From a virus (Duplodnaviria > Caudoviricetes), in IMG/VR virus record IMGVR_UViG_3300005512_000200, positions 1-31,593 of that record: DNA of 31,593 nucleotides, one strand, 5' to 3'. Under the pieces are notes generated by a model. It made no database searches, was not told the DNA's origin, and worked only from the letters and a program-made list of their open reading frames with translations. A program made the position numbers and the translations under genes. Positions 29,321 to 31,336 of the stretch are shown here, one piece after another. Positions within the stretch are counted from its first letter, which is position 1. Each line of letters starts with the position of its first letter.

Positions 29321-29336
29321 ACTGCAATGATGCAGT
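29321..29336. promoter_or_regulatory. Operator palindrome at head of early operon
   Basis: Perfect ACTGCA-ATGA-TGCAGT abutting the RBS. It overlaps a candidate TTGCAA-17-CATCAT minus-strand promoter. Confidence 0.7.
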
Positions 29337-29460
29337 GATTGAATTTTAATTGCAAGTAATTTTTGCTTGCCAATAAATAGAAACTTGGCGGCACAATACT
29401 TACTCTGTGTGCGGAACCCAGCCGAAGGCTGGGCGGTGCTTGGGGGTAACAGCGAGCAAG

Positions 29461-29491
29461 AAAAAAGCCCCGCAGCCGAAGCTGCGAGGCT
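29461..29491 (-). terminator. Strong intrinsic terminator
   Basis: The minus strand reads AGCCTCGCAGC-TTCG-GCTGCGGGGCT-TTTTT, about 11 nt after the stop at 29503. Confidence 0.88.
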
Positions 29492-29502
29492 CGTTGTTAA
29501 GG

Positions 29503-30033
29503 TTAGGCAACTCCCTTCAGCAAGTTCGCTGCGGTAGGCTTTATGCGCTTCTGCGTATTGGATACCGAGCCGCTGAACAACTTCTCACGTGTGTCGTAGA
29601 AGTCGGCTGCTCCTGTCCAAACTCTGTGCGCTAGGATCTCGAACAGAAGCTGTGTAGATGTGGCCTGATGCTCGAAGATCGCCTCGAGAGCTTGCGACTT
29701 CGCAAGTCTCGCGTCGATTCGCGTTGTCTCTGCGAGTTCGCCGTTGCGGCGAACCTCGTCATCGCGCTGAACTTCGAGCTTCTTCTGCCAGTCGCGCTGT
29801 CCTTGGGCTGCTTTCTCGAATGTCGCAGCGGCTGCTCCATATGCGAGAAAGATATCCCGATTGTAGTATGGGTTGTCAGCAAAGGACACTGGATTCTGAT
29901 CCTCGCTTCGAGGATCAAGGCCATCTGCAAGATGGCCTTCCAACATCGTGATGTTGGAGATCAGTGTCTGGTTTACTTCCTCCATGTTGATAGTTACTTC
30001 ATGCTTACGGATTACATTTACTTTCTTAGTCAT
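29503..30033 (-). CDS. Stand-alone helical hypothetical protein (first early gene)
   Basis: AGAGGA RBS, own terminator, visibly GC-richer than neighbours; no family recognised. Confidence 0.8.
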   Translation of the reverse strand: MTKKVNVIRKHEVTINMEEVNQTLISNITMLEGHLADGLDPRSEDQNPVSFADNPYYNRDIFLAYGAAAATFEKAAQGQRDWQKKLEVQRDDEVRRNGELAETTRIDARLAKSQALEAIFEHQATSTQLLFEILAHRVWTGAADFYDTREKLFSGSVSNTQKRIKPTAANLLKGVA

Positions 30034-30064
30034 AGTTCAGTTCCTCTTCTTGTATTTAGGTTAT

Positions 30065-30600
30065 ACACATACACACAGTGTGCATGATATGGCTGACGCA
30101 CTCGGACTGACTCGCATCAGTCAAGTCGCTTGTTCCTAATTGCTCGGGTGCTAGATTCGCGGAAGGAGCCGATTTGCAAAGCAAATTGGAAGGAACCGCT
30201 AATCTAGTTTGACCCTCGCTGCTCAGGTGCGACTTTACTGATCGAGGCTGAGCCGAGTCATCATTCCATGATAAGATGCAAACTCGTGTGTGTGTGTCTC
30301 ACTGTGTGCGTAGACATGACATGCAGGCTTGTCCTGCGATGTGCGGCCTAGCACATATAACGGACTGATCCGCCCCTTCGAGCGAAGTTTACGAGTGAGG
30401 GGGGCATTAGGGATCAGATGTCCAGTTATCGCAACTATATGTCTGAGTGACATATTCTGTACGATATGAATAGGCTCGATCAGGCATGGTTCCACTAGCA
30501 AGCTGGCGTGCTCGGCTGGGCATCGTATTGCCAGTCCAAGCTTTGCTTGGCTTTGGCAAACGATGGGCGACACGCTTGCTAGTGCGGTTCTGCCTGATCT
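30065..30600 (+). ncRNA. Candidate large structured RNA or ssDNA element (two rods plus four hairpins)
   Basis: Nested complementary segments span 30065-30297 and 30478-30599, with hairpins in between. G-U pairs favour the + strand. Identity unknown. Confidence 0.5.
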
Positions 30601-30614
30601 AGCTGGTGTGTGAT

Positions 30615-30651
30615 TTGTGAGTTGACAAGAGGGTGTGAAAGCAGTGATATT
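30615..30651 (+). promoter_or_regulatory. Putative late promoter for terS
   Basis: TTGTGAG-TTGACA (30622-30627), then GATATT 18 bp downstream. Confidence 0.6.
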
Positions 30652-30688
30652 TGGGGGGGAACACAAGGGGGGGCAAGAGAGATTGAGC

Positions 30689-31060
30689 ATGACTGATGTA
30701 TTGAAGGTGACTGAGAAACAGATGGCTTTGGTGGATACGCTTGTAGCAGAAGGATGTAGCATCACTGAAGCTGCGCGCAAAGCAGGATACTCAGAAGGGA
30801 AAAGCGGAAGAGTCACAGCCAGCCGTGCTTTGCGCTTGCCACATGTGCAGTCGTACATGATGACAAGAGTGGGAGAGGTGTTAGGGCTGAACGCTACCAC
30901 TGCTGCAGCTAAGCTTGTTGGGCTTGCCAAGGGAGCCAAGAGTGAGTACGTGCAGCTAGAAGCGAGCAAGGATATCTTGGACAGAGCTGGCTTCAAGGCT
31001 CCCGACAAGCACATGCATCTACATGCAGGAGAGATATCTGTGAAGATTGACTTGAGTTAA
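30689..31060 (+). CDS. terS: Terminase small subunit
   Basis: TEKQMALV...SITEAARKAGYS....ASRALRLPHVQ HTH, and SEYVQLEASKDILDRAG. Confidence 0.88.
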   Translation: MTDVLKVTEKQMALVDTLVAEGCSITEAARKAGYSEGKSGRVTASRALRLPHVQSYMMTRVGEVLGLNATTAAAKLVGLAKGAKSEYVQLEASKDILDRAGFKAPDKHMHLHAGEISVKIDLS

Positions 31061-31336
31061 GCAGTGTAAACTGCGCGAAGCAGAGCTTCGCAAGTATCAG
31101 TGGCAATGTAGCTGATCCTAGATCAAGACTACATTGCGCGGTTTTTACAGGGAAGCGTTTCCTGATATAGTGGTGGGGGGGTCAAAAAAGTGCGTTGCGA
31201 TGTTGCGAAGGGATGGGTTACAAACATTATTGGCAAAAAGGTTCGATGACCAGACACGGCGACATGGCTGCAATCTATTCCCTCTAGTCCTTGCGCCTGT
31301 CGCCACCTTGAAAATTTTTTAAGAAGGAAAAGTAAA

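Follow-up and report, generated by a model that had tools for sequence, protein, structure and literature searches.

A fold-back rod beside the small terminase gene of a marine podovirus is a candidate single-strand promoter for the first leftward gene

The DNA analyzed here (the window, 31,593 nucleotides) is a virus record, 95% complete, of a podovirus with T7-like structural genes. The nearest named phage is Pelagibacter phage EXVC031P Hodr (OQ414635.1), with 63% identity in the small terminase TerS and 53% in the capsid, and capsid identity to HTVC010P is 31%; the phage of the window is a Hodr-like marine podovirus. Its relatives, the Ubiqueviridae or HTVC010P-type phages and Hodr, are described in PMC10504331. 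A profile scan of 35 window proteins identified an O-like initiator, a RecE-like exonuclease, an SSB-like protein and a RusA-like resolvase. The scanned proteins gave no match to an RNA polymerase family, and a 731-aa virion protein had no family match. Relaxase, transfer and conjugation genes were likewise not matched among the 35, the gene set being that of a tailed phage. We rejected a host assignment from five MAG matches, because the taxa were mixed, which was probably the result of binning contamination.

The rod studied here (30065..30297) lies between a leftward gene that has its own terminator and the promoter of terS. This first leftward gene (29503..30033, − strand) encodes a 176-aa ORFan, predicted to form a helical hairpin (mean pLDDT of the model, 68.8), for which no match was found in Pfam, PHROG, Atlas, BFVD or PDB. 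A terminator-like hairpin (29465..29492, − strand), matched in many relatives, closes the one-gene unit, and beyond it a scan found an ordinary promoter-like site for the next early genes, TTGCAA-17-CATCAT (29327..29355, − strand), which is also present in L012 and L212. On the other side of the rod, terS (30689..31060, + strand; PF03592 and phrog_51) is preceded by a late promoter-like site, TTGACA-18-GATATT (30622..30651, + strand), found in the same way. The block from the ORFan terminator to the terS promoter is exchangeable, since phages with an identical terS carry a different block. After terS, related contigs from three public runs have only a few letters in place of about 117 nt (31048-31166); the version in the window is an optional insert.

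The + strand of the rod, which is the template strand of the leftward gene, folded into an unbranched structure of 233 nt with an energy of −105.2 kcal/mol (z −6.34), and none of 200 shuffles equaled it. The − strand folded to −101.4 kcal/mol (z −6.82). A comparison with shuffles had been proposed in the first-pass annotation. In a strand-neutral scan of 777 window positions, the rod was the top inverted repeat, scoring 61 against a mean of 21.6 (sd 3.9), and the next-best repeat scored 35.5. These results confirm the rod-like fold that the first-pass annotation had reported, and its motif coordinates proved correct at all 18 of the 18 positions checked. An Rfam search, also proposed there, gave no match to a known family in the window, nor any with E<=5 for rods from 7 loci. 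In the public RNA runs, which were covered as assembled contigs only, the rod was partly represented, at low depth, in three of four.

We collected homologues by protein searches, which gave 8 distinct relatives, and by motif scans, which gave further ones, among them those of a second lineage with a TerS identity of only 33% and a small acidic protein as the product of its first gene. L151 was excluded from alignment A5 because its spacer region is rearranged. With a consensus structure computed by RNAalifold on the same alignment of 27 distinct homologues, 24 of the 56 consensus pairs had changed on both sides and 97.5% of the cells paired. This covariation exceeded that of all 500 shuffles and all slid controls. 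The one-sided changes in the rod pairs of the 27 were of the G.T type, and the + strand was the stabler DNA fold in 27/27. In the alignment of the window's own two arms the strand bias was weak (G.T 3 : A.C 2). The covarying pairs, together with a family-wide G.T bias described below, bear out the earlier proposal that selection acts on a folded single strand.

It had also been proposed that the internal loops have the same sequence on both arms. This held for AAGGA only, which lies unpaired in each arm and occurred on both in 27/27, a count that is not independent because the set was collected with the AAGGA motif itself; it was present on both arms in 9/9 of the protein-found set (window counted). 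The other loops, TGCTC, CTGA and CATGATA, were poorly conserved (on both arms in 7, 10 and 13 of the 27, respectively, mostly close relatives) and were partly paired in the predicted fold. With three of the four symmetric loops unconserved, twofold symmetry does not stand as the organizing principle of the rod. In the second lineage, which was held out, only 2 of 45 representatives were flagged for the twin AAGGA loop, and 30 of these 45 kept the rod base. Because the same rod base occurs there mostly without the twin loop, the apical domain with its twin AAGGA(A/G) internal loop (30163..30195, + strand) appears to be an exchangeable module. Two further candidates were rejected: a K-turn or box C/D RNA, whose boxes are unconserved (CTGA and CATGATA on both arms in 10/27 and 13/27), and a kissing interaction of the twin AAGGAAC loops with the twin GGTTC of a second rod, because, of 9 divergent loci with the twin loop, 6 have no GGTTC in the region inspected.

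Judged by their letters, the invariant parts of the rod are sigma70-type hexamers at conserved spacing, and they are divided between the arms. The 5′ arm, on the template side, carries a −35 element, TTGACT (30119..30124, − strand), whose GTCAA is invariant in 27/27 and which is followed by no −10 on the − strand. The 3′ arm carries a −35-like TTTACT (30234..30239, + strand), opposite the 5′ arm element in the fold, and a −10-like CATCAT (30259..30264, + strand), which occurs on this arm only (CATCAT in 26/27, CACAAT in 1/27). In all 27 homologues the 3′ arm reads TTTAC (19) or TTGAC (8), then a spacer of 16-19 nt with divergent letters, and then CATCAT or CACAAT. The central C of GTCAA is invariant, yet it faces T in 19 and G in 8 of the 27; because it is mismatched in 19/27, pairing alone does not keep it. 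Folding brings the two −35 halves opposite one another and places the −10 on the non-template arm, across from poorly paired template, so that the boxes of the 3′ arm face the leftward gene only in the folded state. The −10 also supplies the 5′ strand of a weak lateral hairpin (30260-30272), predicted in 27/27 and changed on both sides in L133, and its conservation may be partly structural, through this covarying hairpin. The hexamer CATCAT is common to the rod and the next early promoter, and spacers of 18-19 nt are found in the terS promoters, with 19 nt in the divergent lineage. In the second lineage, the rod base lies 19-37 nt ahead of the start codon in 30 of 45 representatives, and TTGAC stands at a fixed height in 22 of these 30. 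A promoter of single-stranded DNA had been one of the alternatives offered by the first-pass annotation, and these arm-specific hexamers, at conserved spacing on a folded + strand, support it.

We also scanned for an ordinary promoter of the first gene. By consensus scans, neither the window nor 17 of 18 loci have a usable − strand promoter ahead of it, and the sole match among the 18 would start at or past the ATG. As double-stranded DNA the locus thus has no leftward promoter by these scans, yet the 3′ arm reads as a rightward one, TT[TG]AC-N16-19-CATCAT/CACAAT, in all 18 loci scanned. Counting from the −10 of the 3′ arm, a leftward transcript would start near 30086-30088. The predicted mRNA leader (30034..30088, − strand) is then about 55 nt long, with a hairpin at its beginning (30068-30086) and a ribosome site, GAGGA (30042-30046), at its end; the rod of the window ends about 20 nt short of the ribosome site.

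The same slot carries inverted repeats in most relatives. Among 49 representatives of <80% identity (near-duplicates above 80% identity were removed before the counts), 44 had an inverted repeat at the slot, vs 0/40 and 0/38 of control regions. The repeats were mostly unrelated in sequence, and each mirrors its own gene's leader and the first 40-175 coding bases. Their mismatches were G.T 423 : A.C 105, with 38 loci to 2 in favor of G.T, and those of the controls were 69:42 and 70:74; the Fisher p against the more skewed control was 1e-4, although the loci are related and such p-values overstate independence. At fourfold sites, the + strand is skewed to T over A, and this could add to the G.T counts. 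In the Hodr clade, which was held out and from which 16 of 64 loci were removed for want of a detected first gene, the repeat was found in 27/38, with G.T 113 : A.C 63 and 18 loci to 5. In the second lineage, where 15 of 80 loci were too short upstream and were removed, the strand bias was null (38 : 39 in 16/45). Hodr itself has a long slot repeat with a score of 162.5, unrelated in sequence to the rod and with no G.T bias (3 : 3), and the slot of HTVC010P has a weaker, unbiased repeat. The latter (L102, 34563-34892) extends over the start of gp64 and crosses the end of the record, and it shows no strand bias. No repeat was found at this slot in Skadi-1, HTVC028P, Lederberg, MEP301 or Vibrio phage D105.

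Family-wide tests of the promoter elements gave mixed results. A generic sigma70 score failed to separate the arms (17 v 11; 18 v 17). A −10 matrix trained on the terS promoters separated them 31 v 9, at 12-16 nt before the leader hairpin, in a scoring window picked after looking. A −35 from the template arm combined with a −10 from the 3′ arm beat the reverse combination 30 to 12, and the 3′ arm alone scored as well as this hybrid (23 v 17). In the Hodr clade the anchored test gave 11 v 6 and the hybrid against the reverse 12 v 13, so that the arm split did not replicate; only the hybrid against the minus strand held (16 v 4). L011 was excluded from the promoter tests because its start was wrong.

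In the phages with a TerS identity of 33%, the rod module stands before unrelated genes, and we rejected an RNA-protein pair of the rod with the 176-aa gene because the same rod heads unrelated genes of 55-106 aa. Among the first genes of L012-L089, 48 of 63 proteins could be linked into a single family (130-165 aa) that matched none of the scanned Pfam families. Small acidic first genes with a shared C-terminal helical motif occur at L143:801-1079, L106:1356-1529 and L127:1361-1528 and in L283-L357; those of L143, L106 and L127 had no Pfam match. Many of the small acidic proteins begin QLDLF or QLELF, which we take to resemble the sliding-clamp binding motif. A full-length ArdC anti-restriction gene occupies the slot in L075 (1718-2602), and we did not count it as support because L075, its one carrier, has no inverted repeat (score 29).

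The DNA between the rod and terS is also structured. A second rod (30474..30603, + strand), which is not required for the first, is biased to the + strand, with G.T 54 : A.C 4 in 12 alignments, mostly from a tandem G.T segment (GGTT/GGTT). This second rod has four tandem G.T pairs and exchangeable tips, and further swappable hairpins lie in 30300-30470. The terS promoters of L106, L108, L125, L127 and L143 are near consensus (TTGACA and TATAAT/TATACT, with a 19-nt spacer), and promoters with such a spacer may need an activator or supercoiling. Just before terS is a G7-N7-G7 motif (30653..30673, + strand), a candidate packaging signal that could form a G-quadruplex or be a terminase-binding site. 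A pair of G-runs was found there in 65 of 69 distinct upstream regions, and another G-run follows terS in 40 of 65.

The position of the contig starts suggests that a genome end lies just to the right of the rod. Six of 89 contigs, from three clades (L032, L041, L087, L343, L400 and L418, that of L400 being read by eye), start at 0 to +7 after the −35 hexamer of terS, where about 0.3 would be expected per 7-nt window (P(>=5) = 2e-5 before correction for several hundred windows). This cluster suggests a pac-like left genome end at 30627..30634, although contigs broken in assembly at a module junction could produce the same pattern, and it is possible that a pac cut at 30627-30634 would split the late promoter. 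No right-end cluster of contigs was found, and the public runs, as assembled contigs only, were uninformative on expression and on termini. For related phages, PMC10504331 does not establish the termini rigorously; PMC7111524 reports fixed terminal repeats in 93.7% of marine genomes and does not name this phage group.

From these data, we lean towards the interpretation that the rod acts as a single-strand promoter, formed by the strand that templates the first leftward gene. Folding of the + strand would unite the −35 of the 5′ arm with the −10 found only on the 3′ arm, and the sigma70 RNA polymerase of the host, working on the folded strand, would transcribe down the 5′ arm into the first gene from a start near 30087. 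Resection in the 5′-to-3′ direction leaves a 3′-ended strand, and the end of the phage DNA that is packaged last would enter first. The trigger would most likely be 5′-to-3′ resection from the nearby pac-like end, either at entry and circularisation or after the packaging cut. If this end is real, the DNA to its left finishes in the 3′ end of the + strand, and resection would leave exactly the folding strand single. The RecE-like exonuclease, the SSB-like protein and the RusA-like resolvase of the phage are candidate players, and the promoter would be silenced once the region was double-stranded again.

We compared the rod with 6S RNA (PMC8876501) and with the Frpo/ssi promoters of single-stranded DNA. 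As described in PMC9849209, PMC11541004, PMC12672017 and bioRxiv 10.64898/2026.01.09.698686, the latter lie in the leading regions of F, ColIb-P9 and pESBL and fall into classes 1-3; the single-strand promoters of these papers are those of conjugative plasmids, which enter the cell as single-stranded DNA. In layout, the likeness is to a template-strand stem-loop of 200 nt or more with its −35 and −10 rebuilt in the stem, heading a gene seemingly without another promoter. At our locus, the fold, the rank of the repeat and the covariation argue for a stem-loop of one strand under selection. The folded strand is the template (G.T to A.C of 423:105 and 113:63, the + strand stabler in 27/27), with a null result in the second lineage, and the elements are rebuilt in the stem, facing the gene, in 27/27 of the rod family, the family-wide tests being mixed. 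The context is different: the rod belongs to a tailed dsDNA phage, where it lies beside terS and the putative pac end, and none of the 35 proteins scanned pointed to a leading region delivered by conjugation. By analogy of layout, then, the rod would work most like the Frpo-type promoters, but by context it is no member of them. The literature that we searched contains no description of such a promoter in tailed phages; that search took in part of the csRNA supplements of PMC10690425, where the rod may figure as an unnamed candidate RNA.

Coliphage N4 uses short hairpin promoters that are read by its own virion polymerase. The rod resembles them in being a template-strand hairpin that would head early transcription in a dsDNA podovirus, and it differs in its length of 230 nt and its sigma70-type boxes; no RNA polymerase family was matched among the scanned proteins of our phage, although its 731-aa virion protein matched no family at all. 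The long inverted repeat of Hodr shares the slot with the rod and differs from it in sequence and in the lack of a G.T bias.

It is unlikely, in our estimate, that the rod is a purely structural element of a DNA end, in which the + strand folds back once a pac cut or resection has occurred; the fold would protect or prime the free 3′ end or present the twin loop to a dimeric protein, and the hexamers would be incidental. Such an element would fit the paired stretch that runs, in most relatives, from inside the gene to the terS promoter and is longer than a promoter needs, as well as the gathering of contig starts at the right edge of the folded region and the + strand bias of the second rod. 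It leaves unexplained the invariant mismatched base of the −35, the conserved spacing of the hexamers, their fixed distance to the leader hairpin and ribosome site, and the missing ordinary promoter.

The first-pass annotation had put an RNA first, namely a noncoding or 6S-like one, and our results disfavor this. The + strand would then give rise to a 235-nt rod-shaped transcript, resembling an open promoter and able to tie up the host polymerase. The rod does resemble 6S geometry, with a closing stem, a central distortion with a 3′ side hairpin and an apical stem; the polymerase would move along the 5′ arm to the base of the rod, and G.U wobble is compatible with RNA and DNA alike. In the window's own group, TAnnnT stood at the foot of 9/12 rods, but support from a −35 or TG was present in only 1/12 there, in 1/21 of second-lineage and in 3/37 of long-type rods, with no enrichment of TAnnnT in the 21 or the 37. 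Unlike 6S RNA, the rod matched no Rfam family (rods from 7 loci, E<=5), has no conserved + strand promoter at its foot to make it, and keeps −35 and −10 letters of the DNA type invariant. The 5′ arm of most relatives extends into the coding sequence of the neighbor by 40-175 nt, transcripts of the long-type rods would start inside coding sequence, and the leftward gene would be left without a promoter. We therefore consider a decoy RNA quite improbable.

Little more can be said for reading the 3′ arm as an ordinary double-strand promoter directed rightward, which would start at about 30271 and make a structured RNA or a terS leader, with the 5′ arm modulating it through a cruciform or antisense pairing. 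The rightward reading of TT[TG]AC-N16-19-CATCAT/CACAAT in all 18 loci, a score like that of the hybrid, and a downstream region that is structured and modular all favor it. However, the 5′ arm has the better −35 (TTGAC in 27/27, vs 8/27 on the 3′ arm), a looped-out insert widens the spacer of the 3′ arm to 21-27 nt in some relatives (by eye), and the leftward gene is again promoterless. As an explanation in its own right this is a poor prospect, though a rightward promoter and a fold-back promoter may coexist. Very improbable is a − strand mRNA leader that folds to occlude the ribosome site of the first gene: the − strand folds well too, and the arms of long-type rods cover the ribosome site and ATG, but mismatches that are G.T on the + strand are A.C on the mRNA, no upstream − strand promoter was found, and in the window about 20 nt separate the rod from the ribosome site.

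Returning to the single-strand promoter, a wider proposal is more tentative, and we regard it as possible rather than probable. An abundant group of tailed dsDNA marine phages may use a fold-back promoter at the packaging end as a sensor of DNA-end resection, so that the first gene is on only while the end is single-stranded and uncircularised, each lineage having rebuilt the fold-back to match its own first gene. The genes of the slot, helical ORFans and small acidic proteins with clamp-motif-like sequences, would be candidates for anti-defence or host-takeover work. If the promoter works in this way, the phage chromosome would pass through a programmed single-stranded state at one end, and the single-stranded end would serve as a timer or a damage sensor for the first gene.
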